A DNA stretch of 64,000 nucleotides from an uncultured cyanobacterium (GTDB lineage: Bacteria; Cyanobacteriota; Cyanobacteriia; Cyanobacteriales; CAWUOF01): positions 4,246,459 to 4,310,458 of the forward strand of contig CAVUSO010000001.1 of NCBI GenBank assembly GCA_963744145.1, given 5' to 3'. The position numbers and the translations under genes were made by a program. A model generated the notes under the pieces. The model was not told where the DNA came from. It saw only the letters and a list, made by a program, of their open reading frames with translations, and did not search any database. The number at the start of each line of letters is the position of its first letter. Position 1 is the stretch's first letter. This document shows, in pieces, positions 20,138 through 42,911 of this stretch.

Positions 20138-22366
20138 ATGCTAGGTTTGCGCTACGAATCAATCCTAGACCTGGTTACCTTCACCACCGAAAAAAGTAAA
20201 AATTCTACTTTTCTACCCATCAAAATTTTTACCAAATTAGTCCAATTCTGTCAACCTTTAATTCTAGCATTATGTGCTGCAACTGCGGAAATTCTTTTTT
20301 TGCGTGGTGTCGGGACAGGGGCACTTTTACTAACAGCGATGCTCCTCCAACCAGCAGTTTTATTAATGGGAATAACCGGAGTAATCGCAGCAGTTACCTT
20401 TGCTAAAATTGCTCAACTTGGACAGAACTATCTCGATCGAGGTCCATTTCTCTTTAACCCACTTCTAGCAGGTTTAAGTGTCGGTTACCTATTTCAACCA
20501 GGAGCAGCTTCTTTATTTCTCGCTGGAGTAGCAGGAATATTAGCTTTTATTCTCACCTGGACTCTATCCCATATCTTCCGAACTTTCTTATTTTTACCTG
20601 TCTTAAGTTTACCCTTTATCATCGTCAGTTGGGTAGTACATCTAGCTGCATTTCGTTATGCTGGATTACAACCAGCAATTATTCCTGCTCATGTTTATTC
20701 CATTGGTTTACCAATCTGGATGGAAGGATTCTTGAGAACTTTAGGGTTGATTTTTTTCCTCCCTAATATCTGGGTAGGAATTGTCGTCGCAGGATTACTA
20801 TTAGTCAACTCACGCATCCAATTTTTATTAGCAATAGGTGGTTATGCGTTAGGAACTTCCATTCGCGGTATTCTCACAGGAACATTTATTTATGTCTATT
20901 ATGATCCAGCAGCATTAAATTTTGTATTAGTTGCATTAGCGATCGGTGGTTTTTATCTCCTTCCCTCCATCCGAAGTTATGCGATCGCAGGTTTAGCAAT
21001 TGGATTAGTTGCAGTATTAAGCGAAGCAGTGAGTGTATTTTGGGCAGCTTCTGGGTTACCAGTTCATGCGTTACCTTATAATTTAGTCACCTTATTATTG
21101 TTGTATGTATTGGGATTAGTAGGATATCGTTGGTTAACTAGATATCCTCAACCAACTCCAGAACAAACTCTCGATTATGAATTAACTGCTCGATTAAGAT
21201 ATCAAGGTACGGGAAAAACAATTTCCTTACCTTTTTCTGGTCGTTGGTTAGTTTGGCAAGGTTTTCATGGTCAATGGACTCATCAAGGTTTGTGGTGTTA
21301 TGCTTATGATTTTGTGATTCAAGATGAGTCTGGTTCTACTTATCGTGATGATGGATTTAATCTGAAAGATTATTATGCTTATGGTAAACCAATCCTCTCT
21401 CCAGTTCGAGGTTGGATCGTTCGAGTCATTAGTGATTTACCAGATTGTGCGATCGGTAATATTGATCAGGAACATAATTGGGGTAATCATATAATTATTT
21501 ACGATGAACGAGGTTTTTATGTCGAAATATCCCATTTTGCTCAACATAGCATTACCGTAAAATCAGGCGATCGCGTAGAAATTGGCACTTTATTAGGTCG
21601 TTGTGGTAATTCTGGTTATTCTTCCCAACCACATATTCATATTCAAGTCCAACTTAGCGCCGAATTAGGTGCAGCAACAGCACTATTTAGTTTTGCTAAT
21701 CTGATGGTAGATGGTGAATTTAGAGCCGAAGCTACCCCATCAGAAAATACTATATTAGAACCAGTAGCAAGCGATCGCGCTCTCGCTAAAGCTTTAACTT
21801 TCCCCCTTGATTCTAGTTTCGATTTTACTGTTACTCAAAAAGAAAAAATCGTTGATCATCTCTCTTTAACTACCCGGATCACAGGAGATGGTTGGTTTTA
21901 TCTAGATTCGGGTAAAGCCAAATTATACTTTAGTCGAGATGAGTACGGATTTATCTTTCATCGATTAGATGGTAATGATCCTAACTTAGCCTTATTATTA
22001 ACAGCAATTCCTCGATTACCCCTAGCTAGACGTGAACCCGGAAATACATGGTCTGATTATCTTCCCGTCGGGATGATGATTACTGGAATTCGACAAATGG
22101 TTTACTTATTTGCTAGTTCCTTTGTACCAGAGTTAGCTTCAGCTCGCTATACTGGTGAATGGATTTCAAATGAAACTTTAGTAGGAGCAGTCACCATCCC
22201 AGGAATCAAGAATAAAGTATTGACATCTGCTACTTTTGCTCAAAATGGAGAAATTCTCAGAGTCGGTGTCGGTCAGCGATCGCTAGTACGTCAAGATTTA
22301 CAGGTTGTCACCCAGAAATCCCACCGTTGTTTAGGAGTCGGGATGAATGGAAGTACCGTTGGTTAG
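20138..22366 (+). CDS. fusion protein: polytopic membrane domain + M23 metallopeptidase + C-terminal domain of unknown function
   Basis: About 330 aa with roughly 10 hydrophobic helices, possibly of the urea-transporter fold (unverified). Then GNHIIIYDERGFYVEISHFAQHSITVKSGDRVEIGTLLGRCGNSGYSSQPHIHIQV, the M23 HxH signature. Then about 220 aa with no motif I recognise. Confidence 0.7.
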   Translation: MLGLRYESILDLVTFTTEKSKNSTFLPIKIFTKLVQFCQPLILALCAATAEILFLRGVGTGALLLTAMLLQPAVLLMGITGVIAAVTFAKIAQLGQNYLDRGPFLFNPLLAGLSVGYLFQPGAASLFLAGVAGILAFILTWTLSHIFRTFLFLPVLSLPFIIVSWVVHLAAFRYAGLQPAIIPAHVYSIGLPIWMEGFLRTLGLIFFLPNIWVGIVVAGLLLVNSRIQFLLAIGGYALGTSIRGILTGTFIYVYYDPAALNFVLVALAIGGFYLLPSIRSYAIAGLAIGLVAVLSEAVSVFWAASGLPVHALPYNLVTLLLLYVLGLVGYRWLTRYPQPTPEQTLDYELTARLRYQGTGKTISLPFSGRWLVWQGFHGQWTHQGLWCYAYDFVIQDESGSTYRDDGFNLKDYYAYGKPILSPVRGWIVRVISDLPDCAIGNIDQEHNWGNHIIIYDERGFYVEISHFAQHSITVKSGDRVEIGTLLGRCGNSGYSSQPHIHIQVQLSAELGAATALFSFANLMVDGEFRAEATPSENTILEPVASDRALAKALTFPLDSSFDFTVTQKEKIVDHLSLTTRITGDGWFYLDSGKAKLYFSRDEYGFIFHRLDGNDPNLALLLTAIPRLPLARREPGNTWSDYLPVGMMITGIRQMVYLFASSFVPELASARYTGEWISNETLVGAVTIPGIKNKVLTSATFAQNGEILRVGVGQRSLVRQDLQVVTQKSHRCLGVGMNGSTVG

Positions 22367-24280: not shown

Positions 24281-25201
24281 ATGACCAATGATTTTCCCAT
24301 CTTGTTTGTTACGGAAAAAGCTTATGAAGAATCCTCGAATGAAATTTTAGGGAGCAAGTATAAGTTTTGGTTCTATCACGAAGAATTTGGTCGTTGTCTT
24401 TACAAACAAAACCGAGTCAACTTGGGAGAAGATTGGGCAGAGAAAGTCGCATCAGAATTGTGTGAATTAATCGGACTTCCTCACGCTGTTTATGAATTGG
24501 CTTCAACTTGGAAAGGCGATCGCGGTGTAATTTCACCCAACTTTTTACCACAAGGGGGGACGCTTGTACATGGTAACGAACTGCTTACTTCAATTGTGCC
24601 AAATTACCTAACATTTAGCACCTACGGCGCATCACAACATACAATTGATGTAGTTTTAAGAGTTATTGCAGGCAGTTCTGTAAATTTACCCATTAATTGG
24701 ACACCGCCCTCTGGTATCCAAAAAGCAGTGGATGTATTTGTTGGCTATCTTTTGTTAGATGCGTGGATTGGTAACGGAGATCGTCACCATGAAAACTGGG
24801 GGATTGTCCGAATAAAACCGTCATCTACTTCAGAAGAAATGGAACACTTAGCACCTACTTACGATCATGCCTCAAGTTTAGGACGTGAACTCTCTGATGA
24901 AAAAAGGCAGAAACGATCTATACTGGATTATACCGACAAATGTTTTTCAGCGTTTTATGGTAGTGTTGATGATAAAAAGAGCCTGAAAGTTTTTGATACA
25001 TTCTCCCAAGTTGTTCATCGTTATCCCCAAGCAGCTAGTGTGTGGTTGACGCGACTTGAAAATATATCAGAAGCCAATATATTAGATATTTTTAATCGCA
25101 TTAATTGCTCACGGATCTCTCCCAATGCCAGTAATTTTGCTCAAAAAATTCTGGAAATTAACAAACACAGGATACTAACCTTATGGGAAACACTACCTTA
25201 A
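24281..25201 (+). CDS. HipA-like Ser/Thr kinase core without a HipA N-terminal domain (HipT-like architecture)
   Basis: Catalytic region LLLDAWIGNGDRHHENWGIV and APTYDHASSLG match the HipA C-domain motifs. The length (about 306 aa from the ATG at 24281) is too short to include the HipA N-subdomain. Confidence 0.75.
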   Translation: MTNDFPILFVTEKAYEESSNEILGSKYKFWFYHEEFGRCLYKQNRVNLGEDWAEKVASELCELIGLPHAVYELASTWKGDRGVISPNFLPQGGTLVHGNELLTSIVPNYLTFSTYGASQHTIDVVLRVIAGSSVNLPINWTPPSGIQKAVDVFVGYLLLDAWIGNGDRHHENWGIVRIKPSSTSEEMEHLAPTYDHASSLGRELSDEKRQKRSILDYTDKCFSAFYGSVDDKKSLKVFDTFSQVVHRYPQAASVWLTRLENISEANILDIFNRINCSRISPNASNFAQKILEINKHRILTLWETLP

Positions 25202-25212
25202 AAACACTAAAA

Positions 25213-25977
25213 ATGAAGACATCAAAAACACTATTTTTAGCTTGGCAAGACTATTTTAGTCGCGCTTGGTTTACCATAGGTCGGTTAACATTTGACGGAG
25301 ATATTTATAAATTTGTCTATACGCAAGGTGTAAAAGAAGCTCAAGAAAAATGTGCTTTTAATCCTTTATCTTCCTTTCCATATTTAGATCAAGTCTATAC
25401 ATCAACTCACCTATTTCCAGTCTTTGCTAATCGGTTAATGTCGCGATCGCGTCCTGATTATTCCAGTTTTATTGAATCGTTAAATCTTTTACCTGATAAT
25501 AACGAACCAATGGAAGTTTTAGCCCGCAGTGGTGGAGAACGAGAAACAGATACACTTGCGGTTTTTCCTTGTCCAGAAGTTGATGAAAAGGGACAATACA
25601 ATCTCTATTTTTTCTCGCATGGGTTGCGACACTTACCAACCAGTGCAATTGAGCGGATTAATCAGTTTGAACCTAGAGAAGAATTATGGTTAGCTCACGA
25701 ATTTCAAAATTCTTACGATTATCAGGCTTTAACTTTAAATACTAAAGACCATTACATTGTCGGTTATTGTCCGCGATATTTGCTGGCAGAAATTTTTGAA
25801 TTGCTTCGGCAAAATTCCAGTCTAAAAGTGCGAGTAGAGCAAGTAAATAAATCTCCAACCCCACTTCAGTTTCGTCTGTTATGTAAAATGAGTGTCAATT
25901 GTAGAGATAATTTTTGTCCTTTCTCAAGTAGTCAATATCAATCGCTGATTGTAGAAATTGCGATGAAATCTGCATAA
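25213..25977 (+). CDS. HipS/HipA-N-like domain fused to a HIRAN-like domain
   Basis: The N-half (F..IGRLTFDG..YKFVY...FNPLSSFPYLDQVYTSTHLFPVFANRL...PMEVLARSGGERETDTLAVFP) parallels the HipA N-terminal coupling domain. The C-half (EPREELWLAHEFQNSYDYQALTLNTKDHYIVGYCPRYLLAEIFELL) parallels the HIRAN pattern. It overlaps the kinase gene end. Confidence 0.55.
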   Translation: MKTSKTLFLAWQDYFSRAWFTIGRLTFDGDIYKFVYTQGVKEAQEKCAFNPLSSFPYLDQVYTSTHLFPVFANRLMSRSRPDYSSFIESLNLLPDNNEPMEVLARSGGERETDTLAVFPCPEVDEKGQYNLYFFSHGLRHLPTSAIERINQFEPREELWLAHEFQNSYDYQALTLNTKDHYIVGYCPRYLLAEIFELLRQNSSLKVRVEQVNKSPTPLQFRLLCKMSVNCRDNFCPFSSSQYQSLIVEIAMKSA

Positions 25978-26192: not shown

Positions 26193-29100
26193 TCATTTCC
26201 ATTGATTACAAACTTCTTTTATAGAATCAACTACACCTCGCATAGCTGTTTCTTCACCTAATGAAATAATAGCAGGATAAAGAGTTACTAAGTTTTTTAT
26301 AAAGTCTTGTCTATTAGTAGATGCTAGGATGTGAAGATATAACTTCCAATCAGAGAATGATAAATTAGATAAATCAAGACTATGGAGAAAACCATTGATT
26401 GCTTTTGCTTGATTTGGTTTAGAATTTATCTTAAAAATCTCATTTTTCACTTGAGATAATAATTGTTCAGGTACGAATTTACTTAGACCATTCAATACCT
26501 CTGCCCGACTGGATTCATCCTGAATAGTGCGTGCCGCATCCAAGGCTTCGGCAAAATAGGCCCTATCAATCTGAGCAAGGGAACTCAATACCTCTGCCCG
26601 ACTGGATTCATCCTGAATAGTGCGTGCTGCATCCAAGGCTTCGGCAAAATAGGCCCTATCAATCTGAGCAAGGGAACTCAATACCTCTGCCCGACTGTAT
26701 TTATCCTGAATAGTACGTGCCGCATCCAATAAAACTGAGAAATCTGCACCATCAATCTGAGCAAGAGATCTCAATACCAATGCCCGAAGGGATTCAGACT
26801 GAATAGCGCGTGCCGTATCCAATAAAACTGAGAAATCTGCACTATCAATCTGAGCAAGAGATCTCAATACTAATGCTCGAAGGGGTTCAGACTGAATAGT
26901 GCGTGCTGCATCTAATGCTTCTCCAAAATAAGCACTATCAATTTGAGCAAGGAATCTCAATACCTCTGCCCGACTGTATTTATCCTGAATAGCGCGTGCC
27001 GCATTCAATAAAACTGAGAAATCCGCACTATCAATCTGAGCAAGGGATCTTAATACCCATGCCCGCAAGAATTTATCCTGAATAGTGTGTGCCGCATCCA
27101 ATAAAACTGAGAAATCCGCACTATCAATCTGAGCAAGGGAACTCAATACCTCCGCCCGAATAGATTCAGACTGAATAGCGCGTACTGCATCCAATGCTTC
27201 GGCAAAATAGGCCCTATCAATCTGAGCAAGGGAACTTAATACCTTTGCCCGAATAGATTCATCCTGAATAGCGCGTGCCGCATCCAATGCTTCTGTAAAA
27301 CAGGCACTATCAATCTGAGCAAGGGAACTCAATACCTTTGCCCGAAGTGCCCGACGGGATTCATCCTGAATAGCGCGTGCCGCATCCAATGCTTCTGTAA
27401 AACAGGCACTATCAATCTGAGCAAGAGAACTCAATACCCATGCCCGAAAGGATTCATCCTGAAGAGCGCGTGTCGCATCCAATGCTTCGGCAAAATAGGC
27501 CCTATCAATCTGAGCAAGAGAACTCAATACTAATGCCCAAATGAATTGATCCTGACTAGCTTGTGCTGCATCCAATGCTTCTGTAAAATAGGCATTATCA
27601 ATCTGAGCAAGAGAACTCAATACTAATGCCCGATTTTTTTCATCCTGAATAGCGCGTGCTGCATCTAATGCTTCGGTAAAATAGGCCCTATCAATCTGAG
27701 CCAGGGCACTCAATGCCTCTGCCCGATTTTTTTTATCCTGAATAGCGCGTGCTGCATCCAATGCTTCGGTAAAATAGGCCCTATCAATCTGAGCCAGGGC
27801 ACTCAATACTTCTGCCCGATTGGATTCATTCTGAATAGCGCGTGTCGCATCCAATGCTTCGGCAAAATAGGCCCTATCAATCTGAGCCAGGGCACTCAAT
27901 GCCTCTGCCCGATGGTATTCATCCTGAATAGCGCTTATTTTTGTTAAAGCCTTCTTAAATAATGGTTTGGAAAAATAACAACATAATCCCTTAATCCATT
28001 CGGCTATTTTATGTTCATCTTGCATTTGCTCTACATAAGCCCAAGCTTGCTCTATTGTCCAAAATTTACCTTTGACAAATTCTTTGATCATGTCAATCGG
28101 TAGGTTTTCCAATAAACTGTTTAATGTTGCTGTAATTAAGGCATACCGATATTGCAGAACAATAGAGCGGGTTTTGTCTTGCTCATATTGTTGTTCGGCG
28201 ATCGCCCAAGCTCTAGCCACATCTTCCACAAAAATTGCTGGTTGACCAAGGCGATCGCAAGTTTCAAACCAAGCATTATGTCCTAAGCGATCGCTACTAC
28301 CTAGAAGAGTATGAATTTCATCAATCCAACCAGCTTGCTCTAAGTGCCAAGTCAACTGACGATGAATATATCCATCATTCGGTAAATTATACCAAGATTT
28401 TTCCTCAGTTTTTTCTCGGTAACGTTCTAGAAATTGTTGATGAGCCAAAGATAAGCAAGAACAATTTTTATCCCTAGAGCCTAGAGAATTAAGCTTACCT
28501 TCTTCAATCAGACTCCGAGCCATATCGTGCATAAGGTCGTGGATACGATAGGTTGGCTCATCCTCTAATGTAGTAACACCATCAGTCAGAAAAGAACGGT
28601 GTCGCAATAATGACAATCTTTGTTTAACTTGCACATTAGACGACAAATTCCACAGAACCGAAGCAACCTCTAGGGTAAGATTAACATCTTCTGGCAAAAT
28701 ACCTAACCAGGCAAACTGTTCTAACTGTTCCTGATTCAGCCGCTTTAAACTTAAGTTGAAACAAACTTCCAAACTATGTTTACGCTGTTCTTGCTCATCT
28801 AAATCTTCCCATCTTTCCGATGACTGTAAAAGTTTAAATACTCTAGAAAACTCAGCCTTAAATTCAGCTCGTAATTCCGCCCAAGTTGAACCATCTTTGA
28901 TTAAGTTAATCGCTAAATCCAGAGCTAATGGCAAATATCCCAATACCTGAGCAAAGGCTTTTGCTTCTATTTGATCAGCATCTTTCCAATCTTTGCCTAA
29001 CTTTCCTTTAATCAGTTCTAACGCTTCATCTTCGCTCATCAAATCTAAAGAATAGTAATCAGCCTGAGCAATTCTTGCTTCCCTAGTTGTCACCAATACC

Positions 29101-30296
29101 CGACAACCTTCACCACCCACCTGAAACCATTTAGCATGATCTGCATTCCACACATCATCTACTACCAGCAACATTTGTTTTTCTGCTAACAAAGTTTGTA
29201 AATACTGAGTAGCTGATTCCTTAGTATTTGCACTAAATGCTTCCCGCGATCGATCAAGCTCTCGAATCCAATCCCCTAATAACTTCTGTAAATCCGGTTT
29301 TTGTCCTAAAGTTACCCAGAGAATTCCATCTTCAAACCGAGCATTTACTTCTGGATCTCGCACTAGAGCCGCAGCTAAAACTGACTTTCCTAAACCTCCT
29401 AATCCAGCGATCGCGGTTACTACCAGAGTTTGTCCATTTCTGCCCAGAAGTTTTTCTTTTACTGCTTTGAGAGCATCTAACCGTTCCACGTAATTTTCTG
29501 GTAAGGGAATATGGGGAAACGACTTAGATTTCTGAGGTTTTCTTTGAGTAGAATAATTGAGAATGGGAATAGGTCGTCCACTGAGCAGGTGAACGGGTTC
29601 TTGACCACTTCCCTTTAATTGAATACAAATAAAAACGGTTAGTATACCAGCATAAATATTGCCATCATCAGCAGCTTGTTCCGGTTGGAGTCCTTGCAGC
29701 AACGCTTTAGTAAAAAGACCATGCTCTTGATCTTCATAAGCCTTTTCTTCGGCTCTACAAGCTGTAATTAAACAATAGTCAGGCTGACGATTAAAGCTTT
29801 TTAAAGTTGACTGTACTAAATCTTTGCTGAAGGTCTCAAGTAAAGCTCCTGCATGACAGCAATCTAAGAGAATTACTAAACTGCTGAGATCAGAATCGCT
29901 CACCAACTTATTCAAATCTTCTAATCGAATCAGCGTTTCCATATCTTTTTTAGCAGAATTGGAAGCAGCGAGAAAACCTTGTTTTTCTCCAGAAAGAGTA
30001 GTTATTTGAAAACCATGTCCTGCATAATAAACTAGAGCATCTTTCCGAGCAGCTTTTTCGAGCAGAAAAGTTTTTAGAGTTTGATAGAGATCGGCAGCTA
30101 GAACTTTTTGTGAGATAATCTCATAACGACTTTTCTCATTAACCCATTTACAAGGAAACCGGACAACCTCTTGAAAAGCTCCAGACCGTTCTAGCAATTG
30201 AGCCATTTCCTCCGCATCAGTAACCGCTTTCTTTAAGGAAGGGAAACTAGGAGAGTCATATTGAGAAATACCGATTACCAGTGCATATCGCGTCAT
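26193..30296 (-). CDS. STAND NTPase: caspase-like (C14) protease + NB-ARC ATPase + helical linker + fifteen 31-aa HEAT-like repeats
   Basis: Caspase dyad YYAGHGF / LLDCCHAGA. NB-ARC motifs GLGGLGKSVLAAA (Walker A), LLVVDDVW (Walker B) and VLVTTR. C-terminal repeats of consensus AEVLSSLAQIDRAYFAEALDAARAIQDESSR. Confidence 0.85.
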   Translation of the reverse strand: MTRYALVIGISQYDSPSFPSLKKAVTDAEEMAQLLERSGAFQEVVRFPCKWVNEKSRYEIISQKVLAADLYQTLKTFLLEKAARKDALVYYAGHGFQITTLSGEKQGFLAASNSAKKDMETLIRLEDLNKLVSDSDLSSLVILLDCCHAGALLETFSKDLVQSTLKSFNRQPDYCLITACRAEEKAYEDQEHGLFTKALLQGLQPEQAADDGNIYAGILTVFICIQLKGSGQEPVHLLSGRPIPILNYSTQRKPQKSKSFPHIPLPENYVERLDALKAVKEKLLGRNGQTLVVTAIAGLGGLGKSVLAAALVRDPEVNARFEDGILWVTLGQKPDLQKLLGDWIRELDRSREAFSANTKESATQYLQTLLAEKQMLLVVDDVWNADHAKWFQVGGEGCRVLVTTREARIAQADYYSLDLMSEDEALELIKGKLGKDWKDADQIEAKAFAQVLGYLPLALDLAINLIKDGSTWAELRAEFKAEFSRVFKLLQSSERWEDLDEQEQRKHSLEVCFNLSLKRLNQEQLEQFAWLGILPEDVNLTLEVASVLWNLSSNVQVKQRLSLLRHRSFLTDGVTTLEDEPTYRIHDLMHDMARSLIEEGKLNSLGSRDKNCSCLSLAHQQFLERYREKTEEKSWYNLPNDGYIHRQLTWHLEQAGWIDEIHTLLGSSDRLGHNAWFETCDRLGQPAIFVEDVARAWAIAEQQYEQDKTRSIVLQYRYALITATLNSLLENLPIDMIKEFVKGKFWTIEQAWAYVEQMQDEHKIAEWIKGLCCYFSKPLFKKALTKISAIQDEYHRAEALSALAQIDRAYFAEALDATRAIQNESNRAEVLSALAQIDRAYFTEALDAARAIQDKKNRAEALSALAQIDRAYFTEALDAARAIQDEKNRALVLSSLAQIDNAYFTEALDAAQASQDQFIWALVLSSLAQIDRAYFAEALDATRALQDESFRAWVLSSLAQIDSACFTEALDAARAIQDESRRALRAKVLSSLAQIDSACFTEALDAARAIQDESIRAKVLSSLAQIDRAYFAEALDAVRAIQSESIRAEVLSSLAQIDSADFSVLLDAAHTIQDKFLRAWVLRSLAQIDSADFSVLLNAARAIQDKYSRAEVLRFLAQIDSAYFGEALDAARTIQSEPLRALVLRSLAQIDSADFSVLLDTARAIQSESLRALVLRSLAQIDGADFSVLLDAARTIQDKYSRAEVLSSLAQIDRAYFAEALDAARTIQDESSRAEVLSSLAQIDRAYFAEALDAARTIQDESSRAEVLNGLSKFVPEQLLSQVKNEIFKINSKPNQAKAINGFLHSLDLSNLSFSDWKLYLHILASTNRQDFIKNLVTLYPAIISLGEETAMRGVVDSIKEVCNQWK
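26490..27930. repeat. 93-bp tandem repeats, about 15 copies, inside the STAND gene
   Basis: The period is read directly: tcctgaatagtgcgtgc recurs at 26518 and 26611. The last two units are identical at the protein level. Confidence 0.85.
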
Positions 30297-30333
30297 TCTG
30301 ATAATTGACCTAAAATCATTTTGCTGTTAACCT

Positions 30334-30717
30334 ATGATAAACCATTCTCTTGAGGGTACTATGTCCGAGATTCAAAAAATGCTATATACCGATGAAGATG
30401 GTAAAGAGTACGAAATCCTGATAGAAAATAAATCAGCAGTCAATCTTCCTGATGCTGATGTTGATGAAGGACGTGGTTCGCGAGGCGATCGCAGTGAAAC
30501 AATAATAAAGATGCAGCAAGCTCGTGAAATGATTCGCGGTTATGCAGCTTATGCTCTGAGTGCCTTTAAGGATTTTGGGGTAGCAGAAATAGAAGAAATT
30601 ACCCTGAAATTTGGGTTAAAGATTGGTGGTAAAGCCGGAATTCCTTTTATCACAGAAGGAACTGCTGAAAGCAACTTGGAAATCGAAGTTAAATGTAAAT
30701 TTCCTAAGGGGACTTAA
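30334..30717 (+). CDS. Trypco2-like (trypsin-co-occurring domain 2 / CU044_2847-like) small protein
   Basis: The C-terminal IRGYAAYALSAFKDFGVAEIEEITLKFGLKIGGKAGIPFITEGTAESNLEIEVKCKF is the pattern I recall for this effector-associated family. It is divergent from the caspase-NB-ARC gene, 38 nt away. The true start may be the ATG at 30361. Confidence 0.55.
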   Translation: MINHSLEGTMSEIQKMLYTDEDGKEYEILIENKSAVNLPDADVDEGRGSRGDRSETIIKMQQAREMIRGYAAYALSAFKDFGVAEIEEITLKFGLKIGGKAGIPFITEGTAESNLEIEVKCKFPKGT

Positions 30718-30882: not shown

Positions 30883-31461
30883 ATGAACAGTTTAACTCTC
30901 AACCTACCGCCTGTTCTCAAATTAACAGATGAGCAGTTTGAACAATTGGCGGCTGTTAATGGCGATTTAGGTTTAGAATTGACACCGAAGGGAGAACTAA
31001 TTGTTATGCCACCGACGGGAGGAGAAACCGGAAACCGAAATTTTGAGGCTTACATTGACTTGGGAATTTGGAACCGTCAAACTCTTTTGGGAAAAGCTTT
31101 TGATTCTTCTACAGGATTTCGATTACCTCAAGGTGGTACTCGTTCCCCTGATATTTCTTGGGTGACGATAGGACGTTGGAATAATCTTACTGAAGAGCAA
31201 CGCAAGAAATTTTTGCCTTTATGTCCTGATTTTGCGATCGAACTAGTTTCAGAAACAGATGATGTGGAAGAAACACGGGCAAAAATGCAGGAATATTTAC
31301 AAAATGGGTTACGTTTGGGATGGTTGATTAATCCTAAACTCAGACAAGTGGAAATTTATCGCCCGAATCAAGAGGTAGAGGTTTTGGCATCTCCTACGAC
31401 TTTATCGGGTGAGGATGTTTTACCAGGGTTTGTTTTAGATTTAGAGTTCATTTTTTCCTAA
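30883..31461 (+). CDS. Uma2 family putative endonuclease (second subfamily), copy L
   Basis: LTDEQFEQLA...GELIVMPPTGGETGNRNFE...SPDISWV...PDFAIELVSETD...GLRLGWLINP is the Uma2 pattern. Confidence 0.8.
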   Translation: MNSLTLNLPPVLKLTDEQFEQLAAVNGDLGLELTPKGELIVMPPTGGETGNRNFEAYIDLGIWNRQTLLGKAFDSSTGFRLPQGGTRSPDISWVTIGRWNNLTEEQRKKFLPLCPDFAIELVSETDDVEETRAKMQEYLQNGLRLGWLINPKLRQVEIYRPNQEVEVLASPTTLSGEDVLPGFVLDLEFIFS

Positions 31462-31586: not shown

Positions 31587-31874
31587 TCATCGTCAGTTGG
31601 GTAGTACATCTAGCTGCTTTTCGTTATGCTGGATTACAACCTCGCAGGTTTAGCAATTGGATTAGTTGCAGTATTAAGTGAAGCAGTGAGTGTATTTTGG
31701 GCAGCTTCTGGGTTACCAGTTCATGCGTTACCCTATAATTTAGTCACCTTATTATTGTTGTATGTATTAGAATTAGTAGGATATCGTTGGTTAACTAGAT
31801 ATCCTCAACCAACTCCAGTGTCGGTCAGCGATCGCTAGTACGTCAAGATTTACAGTTTGTCACCCAGAAATCCC
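31587..31874 (+). pseudogene. three-segment mosaic copy of the membrane-M23 gene
   Basis: 31587..31641 matches 20619..20673. 31642..31818 matches 20985..21160. 31819..31874 matches 22266..22322. All are in the same orientation, and segments 1 and 2 are out of frame with each other. Confidence 0.85.
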
Positions 31875-31912
31875 GAGTTGGGTTATCTTTAGTTTAATTA
31901 GGATAAATATTG

Positions 31913-32197
31913 ATGTCTAATCCGACAATTGAAGCAAAAATTAGTCTTCCGGTAAGTTTATTAGAAGCGACTAATAAAGCAGTGCAACAAGGAAAAGCAA
32001 ATAGCCGCGATGAATTTATTATGCGGGCAATTCGCAAGGAATTAGCGGCGCTGAAGCGAGCAGAAATTGATGCTTCATTTGCTAAAATGGCGAATGATGC
32101 AGAGTATCAAGCCGAAGCATTGCAAATTGCCGAGGAATTTGCTATTTCGGACTGGGAAGCTTGGCAAATGGGAGAATCTGAATATGAACAGGGGTGA
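31913..32197 (+). CDS. ribbon-helix-helix (CopG-type) antitoxin
   Basis: KISLPVSLLEATNKAVQQGKANSRDEFIMRAIRKEL is a typical RHH N-terminus. It overlaps the start of the mazF-like ORF. Confidence 0.7.
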   Translation: MSNPTIEAKISLPVSLLEATNKAVQQGKANSRDEFIMRAIRKELAALKRAEIDASFAKMANDAEYQAEALQIAEEFAISDWEAWQMGESEYEQG

Positions 32198-32369
32198 TGT
32201 TTACAATGCTCGTCTCGATCCAATTGAGGGATCTGAACAAGGGGGAAATCGTCCAGTGATTATTGTCAGTCGTAATGCTATTAATGTGAGTAGTTCTTTC
32301 GTGATAGCAGTTCCTTGGTCATTGTATAAACCTTCGTATAAAGTTGCGGGGTTTTATACGCTCATTTGA
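32184..32369 (+). pseudogene. mazF: MazF/PemK-family toxin, 3'-truncated
   Basis: MNRGDVYNARLDPIEGSEQGGNRPVIIVSRNAINVSSSFVIAVP is a normal MazF N-half. From about 32325 the sequence turns into unrelated AT-rich DNA, leaving 61 aa where roughly 110 are expected. Confidence 0.7.
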
Positions 32370-32462
32370 TGCTTGTCAATAGGTTTTGTAAAAATATTTT
32401 ATAAAGCATCTAAACGCTATAACAACGTAATACCAATGTTTTCACGCCACACCGTGTAATGT

Positions 32463-32572
32463 TTCTACGCTCACCTGTAGAAATTTCTATGCTCACCTAT
32501 AAAATTTTCTACGCTCACAAGATATAATTTCTACGCGGGACTATATAATTTTCTATATTATTTTTACTGGTA
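32463..32572. repeat. 22-bp tandem repeat, about 5 units, inverse orientation relative to the array at 46653
   Basis: ttctacgctcacctgtagaaat / ttctatgctcacctataaaatt / ttctacgctcacaagatataat / ttctacgcgggactatataatt / degenerate unit. Confidence 0.8.
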
Positions 32573-32889
32573 GTATAGAAATTATATGAGGCTTAAAGCA
32601 TTTTATATGTTTTCTTTAGAGAAGAAAAAATCAGGGTCATGGTTCTCTGGGACTGATTTTGGTGATTAGTCCTGGTTGTGATCGCTAATAAATTAAATAT
32701 AAAAAAAGCCACAATGGTGCATTACATTGTAGCTAATAATATTTTTCATTCTAGGGAAAATTTGGTGCGAGATTTCGGTGATCGTCTAGTATAGACAAGG
32801 ACTCTTCTCGGCGATCGCCTGTCCGAACTGAACAATGAAGGCGCGATCGCATCGCCAACTCCCCTACACCCTAAAAAGCGATTAATATA

Positions 32890-33480
32890 TTACCAAGGTA
32901 AATCTTGAGGTATTCCATAAGCTTGTTCTAATTGTTTCATATATGTATTTAATTTTCTCAAAACATAATCAGCAAGATTTCCGGGTGTAGTATCAATTGT
33001 GTAACAAAATTCTAAACAAATAATTTTATTGCTTGTTTCAACTGTTATATCTGGTTTAATTCTTAAATGTGGATGATACTGTTCACATCTAAAGTGAAAG
33101 TTTAATCCAGATAATACTTCTTCAAGTGCTAAACAGATAGCTTTATTAAATGGTTGATCTCCTATTTTTCCTGGTTTAGATGCAGATGTAGCTTCATTAA
33201 TTTTTTTAAAGGCTTCTCTTGAACTATTTAATGCTTGTCCAACTGTGCCACTTTTACGTTTACCAGTAGGATTTTGACTACCAGATAATTGCAAATATAA
33301 AGGAGTTCTTTTCAATGTTTCATTTGCTAATTTTTTACCAAACCAATGCTTAGGTACATTATATTTTTTTGGATCTTTAAAATCTTCTCTTGAAATTTTA
33401 ATTTTTGCATCATCAGCGTAAGCAACAATACAACTGATTAATGCGTTTGTTGGTAAATACATAATTTTTGTGGTTAACAT
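32890..33480 (-). CDS. hypothetical protein, partner of the P-loop NTPase
   Basis: 196 aa, Lys-rich. The C-terminal RIKPDITVETSNKIICLEFCY weakly resembles a PD-(D/E)xK core but lacks the Lys. It lies 36 nt downstream of the NTPase gene. Confidence 0.4.
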   Translation of the reverse strand: MLTTKIMYLPTNALISCIVAYADDAKIKISREDFKDPKKYNVPKHWFGKKLANETLKRTPLYLQLSGSQNPTGKRKSGTVGQALNSSREAFKKINEATSASKPGKIGDQPFNKAICLALEEVLSGLNFHFRCEQYHPHLRIKPDITVETSNKIICLEFCYTIDTTPGNLADYVLRKLNTYMKQLEQAYGIPQDLPW

Positions 33481-33516
33481 ACGGCTATTTAGAGCTAATG
33501 TTAAACGGTGAGGAGG

Positions 33517-34710
33517 TCAATCAGCTTTTCTTTGTGTATGTTCAATATAAGGCTGTAAAGGGTTATATTCAGCATTCCACATTTCATTGATATTTTCAGG
33601 AATTTGTTTAGCAAAACGTGCTACAACTCCTTCCGCTTCTGGATAAGAAAATATAAACCAAACTTCTGTAGATTTTGGAATCGAGTTTTCAATTTGCTTA
33701 ATATAATTAGTTCTTTGTTCCCAAAGAGTTCTAACATTTTTTAAATAATCTCTAATCAAATGTTTTTCTTGAGGTTTTTGCTGATAGTCATCTTTCAATT
33801 GTTCAAAATCATTATCATTTAATTGAAACTCATGACAACTTTTTCCACTATTAAAAAATTCAATGGTTTTTCGGGCAATATTAGGATATTCTTCCAGAGG
33901 TGGACCCGTAAATTCTATATAAGGAAGTCTACTATGAAACATGGTACTAGAGTAATTTTTTGCAAAACTTTGCATTTTTTCTAAATCTTTACGAACTGTT
34001 ACAGGCCAAATAATCAAAATTGCATATTTACGAAGGAAACTATTTAAATCTCTAAAAAAACCTTTCACTTCCTCTTCTTGCTCATCTCCTAAGTTTTCTA
34101 AATACTCAATTACGATACATAATTTATTATGATTTTTTTTATTCTCTGAAAAAAATTTGATAGCCTCTTGTTTAATTGTTTTGATTAATTCTTTAAGTTT
34201 TAATCCAGAATTATCTTCTTTTATTAACTCACTAGCATCAATTGATACTATTTCTTGTATCATCATATATTGTTGAAATTTTAATGAACTAATGAATGTA
34301 GATTTTCCAACACCGGAAACACCATATAAAAACAATAGATAACCATTATTTCTCATGTCTTTTAAAACAGGTATAATTAGTTCTTCAAATTTAGTAACTC
34401 GAACAATTAAATCAGGAAGCCTAGATTTCTTTTCTCCAATTTCTTCTAAAATTTCTTCATAAGTTAATGGCAAGAATAAATCTAAGTTTTCTCTATTATT
34501 TGTTTTAGAGTTTGAAATTATTATTTGGGGGGAAACTAATTTTTCTTCAACAACAATTTGTTCGGCTGATAAATTACCATTTTCATTTACTGAATCTGAT
34601 TTGAAAATATCAATTTTTGACTGATCTTCTTGAGATTTAGAAGAACCGTCAAAGTCAGGAAATAATAAAGGTAATTGATCTGGATTGTCTGATCTTTTTC
34701 TTCTGGACAT
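33517..34710 (-). CDS. P-loop NTPase (AAA-like) with a charged, low-complexity N-terminus
   Basis: Walker A LFLYGVSGVGKSTF and Walker B-like KLCIVIEYLENL. The DNA is very AT-rich and HIP1-free. Confidence 0.6.
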   Translation of the reverse strand: MSRRKRSDNPDQLPLLFPDFDGSSKSQEDQSKIDIFKSDSVNENGNLSAEQIVVEEKLVSPQIIISNSKTNNRENLDLFLPLTYEEILEEIGEKKSRLPDLIVRVTKFEELIIPVLKDMRNNGYLLFLYGVSGVGKSTFISSLKFQQYMMIQEIVSIDASELIKEDNSGLKLKELIKTIKQEAIKFFSENKKNHNKLCIVIEYLENLGDEQEEEVKGFFRDLNSFLRKYAILIIWPVTVRKDLEKMQSFAKNYSSTMFHSRLPYIEFTGPPLEEYPNIARKTIEFFNSGKSCHEFQLNDNDFEQLKDDYQQKPQEKHLIRDYLKNVRTLWEQRTNYIKQIENSIPKSTEVWFIFSYPEAEGVVARFAKQIPENINEMWNAEYNPLQPYIEHTQRKAD

Positions 34711-34996
34711 ATTTAGATACTTAGATTAAAAATTAGGCGAAAACTAAAATTAAGGTGAGTCCGTTAAGACCCACACTAAAAATTATACTATACCAAAACC
34801 TCTACTGTGTCAAGCTTAGGCATCTTATCCACAGGAATCACCCGACCGAAATTCTCAAAACACTAAATCTCATGCTCTAATATTTTACTATAAACCTAAT
34901 TTTCTTTTCAAGATATCTAACTAACTTAATTATTAAGTTACCTTATTAGTCAAAGTCAATGCTATAATTCCTAGGCTTGTTTATTTCCCACTATCA

Positions 34997-35197
34997 ATGA
35001 GTATATTTGCAATTCAGTTTAAGAAAGAGGAACAAGTTAGATATGCGATCGCCACTCAAGGAGATCCAGAATATAACGGGATAGACTCAGGGAATTTAGA
35101 GGATGCAAAAACATGGAAAACATCAAAGGGTGCTAAGAAATATTTAGAAACTCATGTATTGGTGAACCGCCAAGGCGATAGAATTCGGACAAGATAG
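34997..35197 (+). CDS. small hypothetical protein
   Basis: 66-aa ORF only. Confidence 0.25.
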   Translation: MSIFAIQFKKEEQVRYAIATQGDPEYNGIDSGNLEDAKTWKTSKGAKKYLETHVLVNRQGDRIRTR

Positions 35198-36012: not shown

Positions 36013-36591
36013 ATGAACAGTTTAACTCTCAACCTACCGCCTGTTTTCAAATTAACAGATGAGCAGTTTGAACAATTGGCGGCTGTTAATGGCGATTTAG
36101 GTTTAGAATTGACAGCGCAGGGAGAACTAATTATTATGCCACCGACGGGAGGAGAAACAGGCGATCGCAATTTTGAAATTGATGGACAGCTTTGGTTGTG
36201 GAATCGTCAAAATTTTCTGGGGAAAGCCTTTGATTCTTCTACAGGGTTTCGATTACCAAATGGCGCAACTCGTTCTCCCGATGTGGCTTGGATCAAAATT
36301 GAAAGATGGGAAGCTTTAACCCCGACACAAAGAAAGAAATTTTTACCGCTATGTCCTGATTTTGCGATCGAACTGGTTTCAGAAACAGATGATGTGGAAG
36401 AAACGCGAGCAAAAATGCAGGAATATTTACAAAATGGATTGCGGTTGGGATGGTTGATTAATCCTAAACTCAGAGAAGTGGAAATTTATCGCCCGAATCA
36501 AGAGGTAGAGGTTTTGGTATCTCCTACGACTTTATCGGGTGAAGATGTTTTACCAGGGTTTGTTTTAGATTTAGAGTTCATTTTTTCCTAA
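36013..36591 (+). CDS. Uma2 family putative endonuclease (second subfamily), copy R
   Basis: Same length as copy L. The first ~100 nt and last ~240 nt are nearly identical to copy L, while the middle is diverged. Confidence 0.8.
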   Translation: MNSLTLNLPPVFKLTDEQFEQLAAVNGDLGLELTAQGELIIMPPTGGETGDRNFEIDGQLWLWNRQNFLGKAFDSSTGFRLPNGATRSPDVAWIKIERWEALTPTQRKKFLPLCPDFAIELVSETDDVEETRAKMQEYLQNGLRLGWLINPKLREVEIYRPNQEVEVLVSPTTLSGEDVLPGFVLDLEFIFS

Positions 36592-39556: not shown

Positions 39557-40591
39557 ATGTCATCAAAATATATGTTTCCCTTTCAATATCCAGTTCCCCA
39601 AAAAGATCCTCCGGCTCACCCGCGAGAAACTCTCCCCACCATGTATGATCTACCCAGTGAAAACCCGGAGGAACCTGGTTTGCCCGATGAATTTCATGAT
39701 TGGCAACCTCAATTTTTGAGTGCAACTTTTCGTCCCCGAAAATATCCGATCGCGCGAGTATTTAGTGCCAGTGACATGAATCTTTACTATGATGTGCGTC
39801 ATCCTTTGTGGTACAAACGACCAGATTGGTTTGGAGTCGTGGGGGTATCGAGATTGTATGATGAAGTTGATTTACGTCTTTCCTATGTGATTTGGCAAGA
39901 AGGTGTCAATCCAGTGGTCGTAGTAGAATTGCTCTCACAAGGAACGGAAAAGGAAGATTTAGGTACTAGAAATATAAAAACTTGGTCTGGAGAAGATGCT
40001 TCAGGAACAGGGAATGGAAAAGAAGGGAAACCCCCAAGCAAATGGGAAGTATATGAGCAAGTGTTAAGAATTCCCTATTATTTTGTCTTCAGTCGTTATA
40101 CTAATCAACTGCAAGCATTTCAGTTAGTCGGAGGAAAGTATCAAGCATGGGAACTAGAATCGCAAGGGAGATGGATTGAAGAATTAGGTTTAGGATTGGG
40201 TTTATGGCAAGGCGAATATCAAGGAGTAGAGCGATTATGGTTACGTTGGTATGATCAAGAAGGTAATTGGATTCTAACAGAAGCTGAACAGGAACGTCAA
40301 CGCGCTGAACAACAGGCTCAATTAGCCCAACAAGAGCATCTGAGAGCTGAACAACAGGCTCAATTAGCTCAACAAGAGCGTCTGAGAGCTGAACAACAGG
40401 CTCAATTAGCTCAACAAGAGCGTCTGAGAGCTGAACAACAGGCTCAATTAGCCCAACAAGAGCATCTGAGAGCTGAACAACAGGCTCAATTAGCCCAACA
40501 AGAGCGTCTGAGGGCTGAACAACAAGACCAACAATATCAAGATTTGTTGCGAAAATTGCAAGAAAAAGGCATTAATATAGAAGACCTATAA
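39557..40591 (+). CDS. Uma2 family protein (long-N-terminus subfamily) with a C-terminal Q/A/E-rich repeat tail
   Basis: PTMYDLPSENPEEPGLPDEFHDWQPQFL..., PDWFGV, VVVVELLSQGTEKEDL. Then 14-aa repeats AEQQAQLAQQE(H/R)LR. Confidence 0.75.
   Translation: MSSKYMFPFQYPVPQKDPPAHPRETLPTMYDLPSENPEEPGLPDEFHDWQPQFLSATFRPRKYPIARVFSASDMNLYYDVRHPLWYKRPDWFGVVGVSRLYDEVDLRLSYVIWQEGVNPVVVVELLSQGTEKEDLGTRNIKTWSGEDASGTGNGKEGKPPSKWEVYEQVLRIPYYFVFSRYTNQLQAFQLVGGKYQAWELESQGRWIEELGLGLGLWQGEYQGVERLWLRWYDQEGNWILTEAEQERQRAEQQAQLAQQEHLRAEQQAQLAQQERLRAEQQAQLAQQERLRAEQQAQLAQQEHLRAEQQAQLAQQERLRAEQQDQQYQDLLRKLQEKGINIEDL
40304..40530. repeat. 42-bp tandem repeat, about 5.4 copies, inside the Uma2 gene tail
   Basis: The unit gctgaacaacaggctcaattagcccaacaagagcatctgaga starts at 40304, 40346, 40388, 40430 and 40472. 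Confidence 0.85.
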
Positions 40592-40655: not shown

Positions 40656-42911
40656 TTAGCTATCTTCGTCTTCTTCTCCAGTATTAATGGATGGTGAGCG
40701 TTGGAAGGTAAAGGTAAAAGTATCTCCACTCGCAATTACTCGTCGGATTTCATCATAGAAAGGATAATTACCAATCCCGCTTAAATAAGCCCAACCGCGC
40801 GATCGCGTCAATCCGATAAATAACTGATTACGTAAACTGGGATTACCTTCATCTTTAGCTACATGATCGCACCCAATTACATAAACTATATTGGCTTCAT
40901 TTCCTTTAGCGCGGGGAGGACGGGATATAGTTACTCCTCCCTGATACCAAAAACGATCAGGATCATTTTCCGGATATTTAGGGTTAAGTTGATTCAAACG
41001 TATGGCACTAGGAATATAGATTTTAATTCCTGACTCCATTAAAAACTTACCCACTTCATTTTCTAAGTTGAGTGCATCTAATCGAGTTCCTAAAACCACT
41101 ACCAAAATATCTTGACTTGGTTTTAATTCATCATATTGAAGATTATATTTAATCTTCTCAACCACCGCAGCTAATTCCTCAGCTCGAGAGTTATAAGTGG
41201 TAAACTCTAATAAAGGTTCATCCCAATATTTGGGAATTGGATTAGGAGAATTTTCTGGGGGTCGTTGCAAAATAATTTGTTGTCCAGGAGGAGAAAAACT
41301 ACCTTTAATCACTTTATAACCAATTGCATCCCAACTTTTTTGATTGGTTAATCCAGCTACCATTCCATTTGGACGTAATAATCCCATCCCGATCGCATGA
41401 GCCGCAGTTAAGATTGTCCCAGGAGTACGATAACAGCGTTGGATGATCTCACTTTTTTTAATGTTCCCTTTATGTCTCCCTGTCACTAATTTAGTTAAGC
41501 GATCGCCAAACAATTCTTTAGCCATCGGAATTTTGGTACTATCTAAGGATTGGGCTTCATCATAAGCCCAAATTAAACGTCTTTGTTCAGGATTTTCTGG
41601 ATCGATCGGACGTAAAGATTCATACATCATCCAATAGATTGCTTGCTTATATTCCCCATTATCTTCATACTTAAACTCATCGTCGGTGACTAAATCTTGT
41701 CCCTCATCAACGAGAATAGCATCAAAAATCGGTTGCAGGTAATTTTCCGACAATAACTGATTGCAGATTTGGGCTAATTCTTCACTTGGTTTTCTCCGGG
41801 ACACACTGTTAATACCCAGAGGAGCAATTCCATTAACTTGACAAATAGTTTGATAAAAACCAGGTCGCGCTTTTCCACCCCAAGCGTGTAATATTTTGAG
41901 GTGGTTTTTTACTTGCTGATCATAGGAAACATCCCCATTACTAAAACGTCTTAACCAGCGATCAATTAATGTTTCAATTTGAGGATAAAGCGATCGACTA
42001 AAAAAGATAAAAGCGATCTCCCAATCAGGATGCTTTAAATACATCATTGCGGCTTTTTGACATAGCAAGATGGTTTTTCCTGAACCAGCAATACCGCGAA
42101 TTCGTTGGGCACCGGGAGGAATTTGTTTAGCAATTTCTTCTTGCTGTAAATCTACCTCATATAGCCATTCTTGTAAATTACTAATAATGCTACCACGAGT
42201 CTTTCTTTGACTAGTGGTAGTGGTGTGAGTAAATTTACGCAGAGCTGGAGTCCCACTGATTACTGCTTGCAATATTTTCCATTGTTCCTCATCTAAGTCT
42301 TCTCCGCTCACCGCAGGAACTGATTGTTGAATTTGCTGTAATAAAGTGCTAGGATGAAGCTGGTTTTGGAAGATGATCGGTAACAAATTGGGAATTTGAT
42401 CAAAACCTCTTTGTTGCCATTGTTCTGTGGTGATCAAAGGAAGTACAATCAGAGCGCGTCCCGTAATTTTACGGAAAATATTTTTTTCGCGATCGCAATA
42501 TCCTAACAATGCTTGTAGTTGAGATTTACCACTTTCTCCCGGATGAGCAAAGATGAGTTGATCATGATCTAATTGCCATTGTCCATCATTAATTGCGATA
42601 ATTTGGTCGATCGTCAGCTGCGATATTTCGAGAATAACTAAACCTAATTCTTGATCAGCTATTACCACATCCGGTTCTCTGCGGACTTCTCCCAGTTTAA
42701 AAAAAAGCGGGTAACGCCAATAACCGATACACTCGCGATCGCTAAAAGCATTTTTGACCAGATCCCAAACCTTCTGTTCACAATTTTTACCACTCTCCGG
42801 AATTGGTTCAGTGATGATAAATTTGCGAATTTTATCTTTAATCGAAACAGACATAATCACTACCCTAAAAAACAGTGGGGTGAATTTAAAAGAATAATTT
42901 TTTTTTGTCAA
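40656..42911 (-). CDS. NERD-like nuclease domain fused to a UvrD/Rep-type SF1 helicase
   Basis: N-terminus EQKVWDLVKNAF...REPDVVIADQELGLVILEISQ (NERD-like). Walker A GIAGSGKTILLCQKA, Walker B ILVDEGQD, C-terminal LFIGLTRSRGWAYLSG. The true start may be the Met at 42854. Confidence 0.7.
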   Translation of the reverse strand: MTKKNYSFKFTPLFFRVVIMSVSIKDKIRKFIITEPIPESGKNCEQKVWDLVKNAFSDRECIGYWRYPLFFKLGEVRREPDVVIADQELGLVILEISQLTIDQIIAINDGQWQLDHDQLIFAHPGESGKSQLQALLGYCDREKNIFRKITGRALIVLPLITTEQWQQRGFDQIPNLLPIIFQNQLHPSTLLQQIQQSVPAVSGEDLDEEQWKILQAVISGTPALRKFTHTTTTSQRKTRGSIISNLQEWLYEVDLQQEEIAKQIPPGAQRIRGIAGSGKTILLCQKAAMMYLKHPDWEIAFIFFSRSLYPQIETLIDRWLRRFSNGDVSYDQQVKNHLKILHAWGGKARPGFYQTICQVNGIAPLGINSVSRRKPSEELAQICNQLLSENYLQPIFDAILVDEGQDLVTDDEFKYEDNGEYKQAIYWMMYESLRPIDPENPEQRRLIWAYDEAQSLDSTKIPMAKELFGDRLTKLVTGRHKGNIKKSEIIQRCYRTPGTILTAAHAIGMGLLRPNGMVAGLTNQKSWDAIGYKVIKGSFSPPGQQIILQRPPENSPNPIPKYWDEPLLEFTTYNSRAEELAAVVEKIKYNLQYDELKPSQDILVVVLGTRLDALNLENEVGKFLMESGIKIYIPSAIRLNQLNPKYPENDPDRFWYQGGVTISRPPRAKGNEANIVYVIGCDHVAKDEGNPSLRNQLFIGLTRSRGWAYLSGIGNYPFYDEIRRVIASGDTFTFTFQRSPSINTGEEDEDS

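Follow-up and report, generated by a model that had tools for sequence, protein, structure and literature searches.

A single disrupted gene of an undescribed family was found on the minus strand at positions 32890-34710 of a 64,000-nucleotide stretch of DNA from an uncultured cyanobacterium (contig CAVUSO010000001.1, positions 4,246,459 to 4,310,458), which is referred to here as the window. The gene comprises 606 sense codons, one internal TGA and a terminal stop, and its predicted product joins an AAA+ ATPase to a PD-(D/E)xK-like C-terminal domain. A sequence-only reading of the window had described the segment as a two-gene cassette, formed by open reading frames (ORFs) of 397 aa (33517-34710, minus strand) and 196 aa (32890-33480, minus strand). 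The comparisons reported here instead identify the two ORFs as one gene of about 606 codons, split by a single TGG-to-TGA change. The whole account, in which one broken and displaced gene belongs to a horizontally moving family whose intact members are read as defence nucleases, is put forward with moderate confidence.

Disruption of the gene by a TGA codon

The two ORFs share a common reading frame and lie 36 nt apart, separated by one TGA (33517-33519, minus strand) and 12 sense codons. The TGA takes the place of a Trp codon: GCT GAT TGA in the window corresponds to GCT GAT TGG in both locus L001 and Nodularia, and the Trp, W403 in the numbering of the 613-aa homologue P0002, is invariant in 41 aligned relatives. 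Residues 1-402 of P0002 match the first ORF with 79% identity, residues 418-613 match the second with 80%, and the window gene is 85.8% identical to L001 over 1.9 kb of nucleotide sequence. Single proteins of ~530-640 aa make up most of the 120 listed homologues, and of the 16 species-level loci, 12 have one uninterrupted ORF (among full-length copies, 13 of 15). The ORF sizes, their spacing and the motifs GVSGVGKST, IVIEY and KPDITVE...ICLEF are all present as the sequence-only reading had placed them. The cassette itself has to be given up, given the common frame, the one TGA at an invariant Trp and the single protein of nearly all relatives; linkage of the pair in other genomes, proposed earlier as a check, is not what the relatives display, since they mostly carry one ORF and not two linked genes.

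The inactivation of the window copy appears to be recent, because the window copy retains 54 of 56 invariant residues (apart from the Trp, the only change is a conservative one, K to R) and the ratio of nonsynonymous to synonymous substitution rates (dN/dS) between this copy and its relatives is 0.25-0.38; pairs without the window copy give values only slightly lower, 0.17-0.34. The gene is most likely non-functional in this genome.

A working split version, a two-component system of separately produced 397-aa ATPase and 196-aa effector, would fit the second ORF starting at an ATG already present in the family, the good conservation of both halves, and the Chamaesiphon copy, whose own break lies in the same linker, five codons farther upstream. 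It is nevertheless very improbable. The ORF is uninterrupted in most loci, the residue lost to the stop is an invariant Trp, dN/dS rises slightly past the stop, and the second ATG has no evident ribosome-binding site ahead of it; the Chamaesiphon split, moreover, results from a frameshift in a metagenome-assembled genome, where error or decay may account for it.

The nonsense change of the window (33517-33535) and the Chamaesiphon frameshift (L012/L028, ~2001-2058) arose independently and lie no more than six codons apart in the linker QRKADW. Two disruptions at this place could reflect chance, a hotspot at an A-run or a tolerated split point. Synonymous divergence between the window gene (32890-34710) and the Nodularia locus L016 is uneven, ~1.0 in the ATPase core and ~0.35 in the C-terminal part, which suggests recombination inside the gene between lineages.

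Domain architecture of the family protein

Most homologues, normally proteins of ~550-625 aa, share one layout: a disordered N-terminal tail, an AAA+ ATPase and a C-terminal probable nuclease. The Walker A motif GVSGVGKST (34297-34323, minus strand) contains the invariant residues G137, G139, K140 and S141, and a Walker B-like motif, CIVIEYLE (34096-34119, minus strand), contains L208 and E209, which are invariant in alignment A1. The AlphaFold model of P0002 has a predicted local distance difference test score (pLDDT) of 78 and a predicted template modelling (TM) score of 0.69. A Foldseek search with the full-length model, which the sequence-only reading had proposed as a check, returned AAA+ ATPases (ORC/Cdc6, ClpA/B, NSF and Rubisco activase, E = 2e-6 to 3e-4), with TM scores that are low, the protein being multi-domain; initiator-type proteins of the ORC/Cdc6 kind came first. 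In addition, the Pfam AAA profile scored 21.5 bits against a cut-off of 21.2. By its motifs and its modelled core fold, the protein belongs to the AAA+ superfamily.

Below the level of the superfamily, the family is covered by no model of Pfam, NCBIfam, PHROGs or PADLOC, whether the halves, full-length relatives or distant relatives are used, in agreement with the earlier statement that neither ORF belongs to a named family. The best Pfam match, nSTAND6 (PF25201), reached 24.2 bits, under its cut-off of 27.7, and aligned residues 125-168 to profile positions 20-63 of 148, which is the Walker A region only. A profile search of the sequences of solved structures gave only P-loop similarity to ABC transporters. 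Relatives of ~475 aa from Proteobacteria and Actinobacteria (P0274, P0302 and P0195, at loci L039, L040 and L041) are named "DNA (cytosine-5)-methyltransferase 1" in JGI and UniRef. This identity was rejected for the distant relatives, which have neither a methyltransferase domain nor a methyltransferase neighbor; the name is probably a propagated misannotation.

The C-terminal domain is a probable PD-(D/E)xK-type nuclease, as judged from motifs and a model. Its putative core, E-x2-H-P...PD...(I/L)E...Y-x3-K, lies at 32953-33084 (minus strand) and has an alpha-beta-beta-beta-alpha topology. When the 196-aa part was modelled (pLDDT 88.5), the terminal alpha-beta-beta-beta-alpha unit carried E550, H553-P554, P560-D561, E574 and K593. 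In the 41-sequence alignment, H553, D561 and E574 never vary and E550 and K593 rarely do; D561 and E574 remain invariant, and E550 and K593 almost invariant, in relatives of only ~20% identity. The CoiA_nuc profile scored 18.1 bits against a cut-off of 20.3 (E = 0.003), NERD reached E = 0.007 in one distant relative, and the best fold match in the PDB had E = 0.5. The sub-significant fold lists hold many Mrr, RecB, CoiA and endonuclease entries, and matches to Mrr and RecB in a viral structure library were likewise sub-significant. The E, PD, E and K pattern on this core and the weak profile and fold resemblances, all under threshold, are shared with PD-(D/E)xK domains of the CoiA, NERD and Mrr types. 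The family differs from them in two respects: its Lys is located on the following helix and not in an ExK triplet, and an extra invariant His precedes the PD. The faint resemblance to a nuclease core noted earlier for the 196-aa ORF finds agreement in the E/H-PD-E-K pattern, with sub-threshold matches only. The combination of a P-loop ATPase with a nuclease-like effector was also correctly recognised, the two being domains of one protein.

The N-terminus had been read as disordered, and residues 1-79 of the P0002 model are so predicted (pLDDT < 50). Within this tail, after a basic patch, the window gene encodes QLPLLF (residues 12-17; 34660-34677, minus strand). The motif resembles the consensus QLxLF/QLxLxL for binding to the beta sliding clamp (PMC5397184, PMC4549789), and its position in a flexible terminus fits as well; binding is predicted only. 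Among 55 tail-bearing relatives, 30 contain Q[LM]x[LF][FL] and 45 contain relaxed variants. Such motifs also occur in distant relatives, and the tail is otherwise unconserved. The AAA+ protein Hda carries a clamp-binding consensus at its N-terminus, and many transposases contain one (PMC5397184, PMC4549789).

The layout of Hda, in which a flexible N-terminus with QL[SD]LF or QLxLxL is followed by an AAA+ module, resembles that of the family, and the fold matches of the family fall in the initiator (ORC/Cdc6) neighborhood. No sequence homology to Hda was shown, however, and the family protein adds ~330 residues that include the nuclease-like domain. This likeness, the initiator-type fold matches, an acnB-adjacent position conserved across orders and the purifying selection on the gene would be expected of an accessory replication or repair factor inherited vertically at the acnB locus, for instance an Hda-like regulator or a fork-processing nuclease at clamp-loaded DNA. 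Such a role has a small probability. Only 16 species-level genomes carry the family, and its relationships are incongruent with those of acnB, its composition is persistently foreign and its copies are frequently decayed; in these respects, too, an accessory and horizontally transferred gene is unlike Hda.

Distribution and horizontal movement of the family

A genome scan, with the C-terminal alignment as query and one genome per species, detected 16 species-level loci, all of them cyanobacterial. A profile search yielded 269 cluster representatives, which include full-length relatives of ~20% identity from Proteobacteria and Actinobacteria. These sequences form an uncharacterised family found mainly in cyanobacteria. 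A scan of viral contigs gave nothing significant for the family, and tblastn searches of 72,556 plasmids and 50,697 phage records returned nothing.

The latter result bears on the second interpretation offered by the sequence-only reading, a plasmid-type replication or partition pair. Nothing speaks for it beyond a P-loop NTPase and the iteron-like array of 22-bp repeats nearby, and its probability is practically negligible: plasmid matches are absent, no ParA, ParB or Rep family was matched, the repeat family recurs between chromosomal housekeeping genes, and all relatives are chromosomal single genes.

In 10 lineages, the gene is located directly after acnB and in the same orientation (Nodularia, Jaaginema, Fischerella, Pannus, two Crocosphaera species, Lyngbya, Chamaesiphon, Cyanobacterium aponinum and a metagenomic relative). 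A second subgroup (L021, L023, L025, L034 and L035) lies directly after chlH, and one distant relative lies 36 bp past a methylmalonyl-CoA mutase gene. The relationships of the family do not follow those of the adjacent gene. Pairwise identities of the family protein and of the adjacent AcnB are uncorrelated (Spearman -0.15): Nodularia and Fischerella share 86% identity in AcnB and 65% in the family protein, and for Nodularia and Jaaginema the values are 78% and 76%. No constant neighbor gene was found among the family loci. Recurrent neighbors are XisI, PIN, Uma2, BrnT/A, ParE and HNH genes, with occasional GmrSD, HindVP restriction enzyme, DndB and AAA_15/21 genes.

The composition of the gene is foreign in its hosts. 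The region of the window gene has a guanine-plus-cytosine (GC) content of 28.6%, compared with 39.2% for the window, and no other 1.8-kb stretch of the 64 kb is so poor in GC (z = -3.75). At 17 loci, the GC content of the gene is 27-35% and that of the flanks 32-55%; in distant relatives from high-GC hosts (including L039-L041), the gene falls 16-18 points under its flanks. The HIP1 sequence, GCGATCGC, occurs 75 times in the window (~1 per 853 bp) and is absent from 32851-35044, the nearest sites being at 32843-32850 and 35045-35052. At 2202 bp, this gap ranks just fourth by length among those of the window. It is no evidence of foreignness alone, because random placement expects ~5.7 gaps of such length. 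Across the 17 loci, the gene contains 0 HIP1 sites, compared with ~28 predicted in total from flank density.

The sequence-only reading had taken the missing HIP1 sites and low GC content as marks of foreign DNA; both observations stand, and the gap loses its value as evidence. Its broader view of horizontally acquired DNA agrees with the composition of the family and with the relationships incongruent with acnB. Since low GC content and the lack of HIP1 extend across the hosts of the family, they are properties of the gene family and not a timestamp of arrival at this place or a sign of recent arrival.

Decay is frequent in the family. The Chamaesiphon copy carries its frameshift five codons upstream of the same Trp, the Trichormus copy has an in-frame stop, and Limnofasciculus keeps only a 47-aa remnant. 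In Cyanobacterium aponinum UTEX 3222, the copy (L038, 6077-9221) is split by an insertion sequence with a DDE transposase and is still located directly after acnB; this copy is also the closest named relative of the window copy, with 84% identity. The fixed position, the incongruence with AcnB, the foreign composition and the frequent decay together indicate that the family is a horizontally moving accessory gene.

Displacement of the window copy from acnB

No acnB gene is present within the 64-kb window. A decayed acnB 3' end, encoding FENFGRVIPVDKMPKLDTVEVLV before its stop, was nevertheless found ahead of the gene at 34788-34880 (minus strand), by blastn with the acnB end of L001 (E = 5e-6) and by tblastn with AcnB C-termini (E = 2.6e-5); the remnant upstream of the gene amounts to ~70-90 nt. 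It is followed by a GC-rich hairpin and a T-run at 34755-34774 (minus strand), which were detected in a terminator scan and constitute an intrinsic terminator of the acnB type. All 10 acnB-linked loci have a similar hairpin (AGGGTGGGC...GCCCACCCT) after the stop codon of acnB. The remnant and the terminator ahead of the gene thus mark the window copy as displaced. Homology to the other copies spans ~34880 to ~32838, which implies an arriving fragment of ~2 kb. The copy arrived as "acnB tail + terminator + gene" in a variable region where Uma2 and toxin-antitoxin genes abound. In Anabaena CRKS33 and Trichormus, too, the gene is preceded by a decayed piece of acnB.

Inside the acnB remnant, promoter-like elements were found at 34782-34813 (minus strand): TTGACA, a spacer of 17 nt and TAGTAT, with an overlapping TATAAT 20 nt from TTGACA. 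The TATAAT site may be the promoter of the gene, with an attenuating leader; promoter-like sites of this region are not enriched over shuffled sequences. A TATAAT, often TGnTATAAT, is located at or after the stop of the upstream gene and before the hairpin in L015, L016, L019, L021, L023 and L025, and is absent in Crocosphaera and Lyngbya. A leader of TATAAT and hairpin as part of a mobile unit was considered and downgraded: the hairpin is attributed to acnB as its terminator because it follows the acnB stop even where other genes intervene before the family gene. Rfam and tRNA scans of the gene region returned nothing.

The recurrent position also invites a reading as a selfish, homing-like or site-preferring gene. 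Such a gene would cut empty sites after acnB or chlH, repair would copy it together with the adjacent acnB, the host would gain no benefit, and the clamp motif would couple the event to replication, as for some transposases. In line with this proposal, the gene occupies the same place after the acnB terminator in 10 lineages despite relationships incongruent with acnB, the second subgroup follows chlH and the distant relative follows methylmalonyl-CoA mutase. Three displaced copies have kept acnB 3' remnants, and the type of the AcnB C-terminal tail largely follows the gene clade and not taxonomy. A single gene with no partner and frequent decay would also fit, and QLxLF motifs are known in transposases (PMC4549789).

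Free-standing homing endonuclease genes are similar in being single nuclease genes beside conserved genes, with the same target place and with flanks that travel along. They differ from the family, which has a large AAA+ module and no LAGLIDADG, GIY-YIG, HNH or His-Cys box, and for which cleavage of empty sites is hypothetical. The Pfam scan gave no homing-endonuclease domain, and AAA+ ATPases are atypical of homing genes. Furthermore, the gene is single-copy where this was checked (Crocosphaera watsonii), neither terminal repeats nor duplicated target sites were observed, the correspondence between AcnB tail type and gene clade fails in C. aponinum, and other accessory genes also gather downstream of acnB, which may be merely a permissive hotspot. 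A selfish gene of this kind is considered unlikely, though it is the main rival of the defence reading. Still more doubtful is the fuller version, in which the family would be a novel type of one-gene mobile element, a clamp-tethered AAA+ nuclease that spreads itself, homing-like, behind the terminators of conserved genes (acnB, chlH, mcm) and carries the 3' end of its neighbor along, without a transposase or integrase.

Possible function of the intact protein

The reading tentatively preferred here, which is judged only a little less probable than its denial, is that the intact protein would be a stand-alone, defence-type, ATP-dependent DNA nuclease. In this mechanism, the AAA+ module would sense or switch, the C-terminal PD-(D/E)xK-like domain would cut DNA, and the N-terminal QLxLF would hold the protein at the sliding clamp of DNA that is being replicated. 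Clamp tethering could then direct the attack to foreign replicons or replication intermediates.

The nearest parallels are defence proteins of the STAND/AAA+ plus PD-(D/E)xK kind (Avs-type, nSTAND), in which a P-loop ATPase is likewise fused to a nuclease-type effector. A patchy distribution, an AT-shifted composition and a location in variable regions with toxin-antitoxin or restriction genes are further likenesses, and the best Pfam match of the family is nSTAND6. In contrast to these proteins, the family has no repeat-type sensor domain, its effector is C-terminal, it has no PADLOC membership, and the nSTAND6 match is sub-threshold and confined to the Walker A region. Septu PtuAB, Gabija GajA, PARIS AriAB and the OLD family share with it the general logic of a nuclease under the control of an ATPase. 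They differ from it in that their ATPases are of the ABC/SMC type, their nucleases are of the TOPRIM or HNH kind, and two genes are often involved. Distant relatives gave weak PADLOC matches to PtuA, AriA and AbiLi (E at least 6.6e-5), with the lowest value for MkoC (1.1e-5), all in the P-loop only.

Several points weigh against this interpretation and the account that contains it. In PADLOC-DB v2.0.0, which covers known and candidate defence systems, nothing beyond Walker-A-level similarity was matched; the best matches of the family itself had E of at least 0.0018 and were in the P-loop only. No fold or profile match to a nuclease was significant, the nuclease assignment being made from motifs and topology. 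A clamp-binding motif is unusual in defence proteins and commoner in replication and repair factors and transposases (PMC5397184, PMC4549789). The anti-phage function is deduced from architecture and setting, and guilt by association is a weak argument, because the neighbors are mostly toxin-antitoxin and small-nuclease genes. Genes of these types are found everywhere in cyanobacterial genomes. Lastly, the TGA of the window may be a sequencing error, and the two parts of the gene may still act together.

The earlier proposal of an uncharacterised anti-phage system is thus retained in part. An ATPase and a nuclease-like effector do occur in a region rich in toxin-antitoxin genes; the two-gene form is not upheld, and the PADLOC comparison that had been recommended gave no significant match to any system component model.

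Borders and neighborhood of the gene

A mazF (PemK-like) gene is broken on the left side of the segment. Only its 5' half is present (32184-32320, plus strand; PemK_toxin profile positions 2-55 of 109), and the gene breaks off after ~45 codons. With tblastn, residues 3-36 of the probe were matched (E = 2e-8) and the rest gave no match; the 3' half was not detectable in the window with two cyanobacterial MazF probes and an approximate Bacillus-type probe. The gene upstream of it (31910-32197, plus strand) is a putative mazE-type antitoxin gene, assigned by this position and with a weak match to a ribbon-helix-helix profile (RHH_1, E = 0.044). With half of the toxin gene missing, the locus contains no complete MazEF toxin-antitoxin pair. 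Between the mazF break (~32320) and the end of family homology (~32838) lie ~510 bp of unrelated sequence, with 22-bp repeats and two HIP1 sites. The segment had been described as a cassette inserted into mazF. The truncation of mazF is real; a clean insertion is not demonstrated because of the ~510-bp gap and the lack of a 3' half in the window. An uninterrupted mazEF site was sought in a related strain: an exact look-up of the MazE protein was empty, and ArgH and ThiOG had no relatives of >90% identity. The border area looks repeatedly rearranged.

The 22-bp tandem repeat array (TTTCTACGCTCAC...; 32440-32560, plus strand) is present as reported in the sequence-only reading, which had assigned it to the left border. 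It belongs to a dispersed repeat family, and a border role does not hold: a related array at 46650-46875, 14 kb away, consists of ~10 copies that are inverted, 78-91% alike and located between ordinary genes. The repeat is a dispersed minisatellite and could mediate inversion. Two other identities were rejected. A transposon (Tn7-like or other) bounded by the two arrays is contradicted by the 14 kb between them, which hold thiO-thiG, tRNA-Thr and further ordinary genes, have normal GC and HIP1 content and contain no transposase. Iterons of a plasmid origin are contradicted by the occurrence of the same family between ordinary genes and by the absence of plasmid matches.

The whole variable segment is flanked by two Uma2-family genes in direct repeat, copy A at 30883-31461 (plus strand; Pfam Uma2, E = 1e-44) and copy B at 36013-36591 (plus strand; E = 1e-46). 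The copies are 5130 bp apart, with ends 94-95% identical and a middle of 77% identity, a mosaic pattern that suggests gene conversion. A third Uma2-family gene (39557-40591) contains QQAQLAQQE(R/H)LRAE tandem repeats. The defence and toxin-antitoxin setting described earlier was confirmed insofar as the region is rich in toxin-antitoxin and small-nuclease genes.

Other genes of the neighborhood are recorded here as separate observations. A 1367-aa protein (26193-30296, minus strand) combines a Peptidase_C14 caspase, NB-ARC, an APAF1 helical domain and ~20 HEAT-like repeats. Its gene is divergent from a Trypco1-domain gene (30334-30717, plus strand) and matches the PADLOC model 'caspase' with E = 1e-14; the pair (26193-30717) looks like a STAND-type conflict system. 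A 70-aa ORF (31626-31838) matches only the last ~45 positions of a urea-transporter profile and is a gene remnant; 10 kb from it, a full urea transporter is fused to Peptidase_M23 (20138-22366). A HIRAN-domain protein (25183-25977) also lies in the variable neighborhood, and at 40656-42911 a 751-aa UvrD-like helicase is encoded, of which only the C-terminal domain was recognised.

Significance of the family

The annotation of this segment is corrected, as one recently killed gene takes the place of an operon. An undescribed accessory family is defined. Its proteins unite an AAA+ ATPase with a probable nuclease and a motif like that for clamp binding; the gene has a foreign composition in every host and is repeatedly found right after acnB or chlH. 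If its members are defence genes, they would represent a stand-alone system from cyanobacteria, where defence has been little explored; if they spread themselves, the family would be an unusual mobile element. Both readings could be tested with an intact orthologue.

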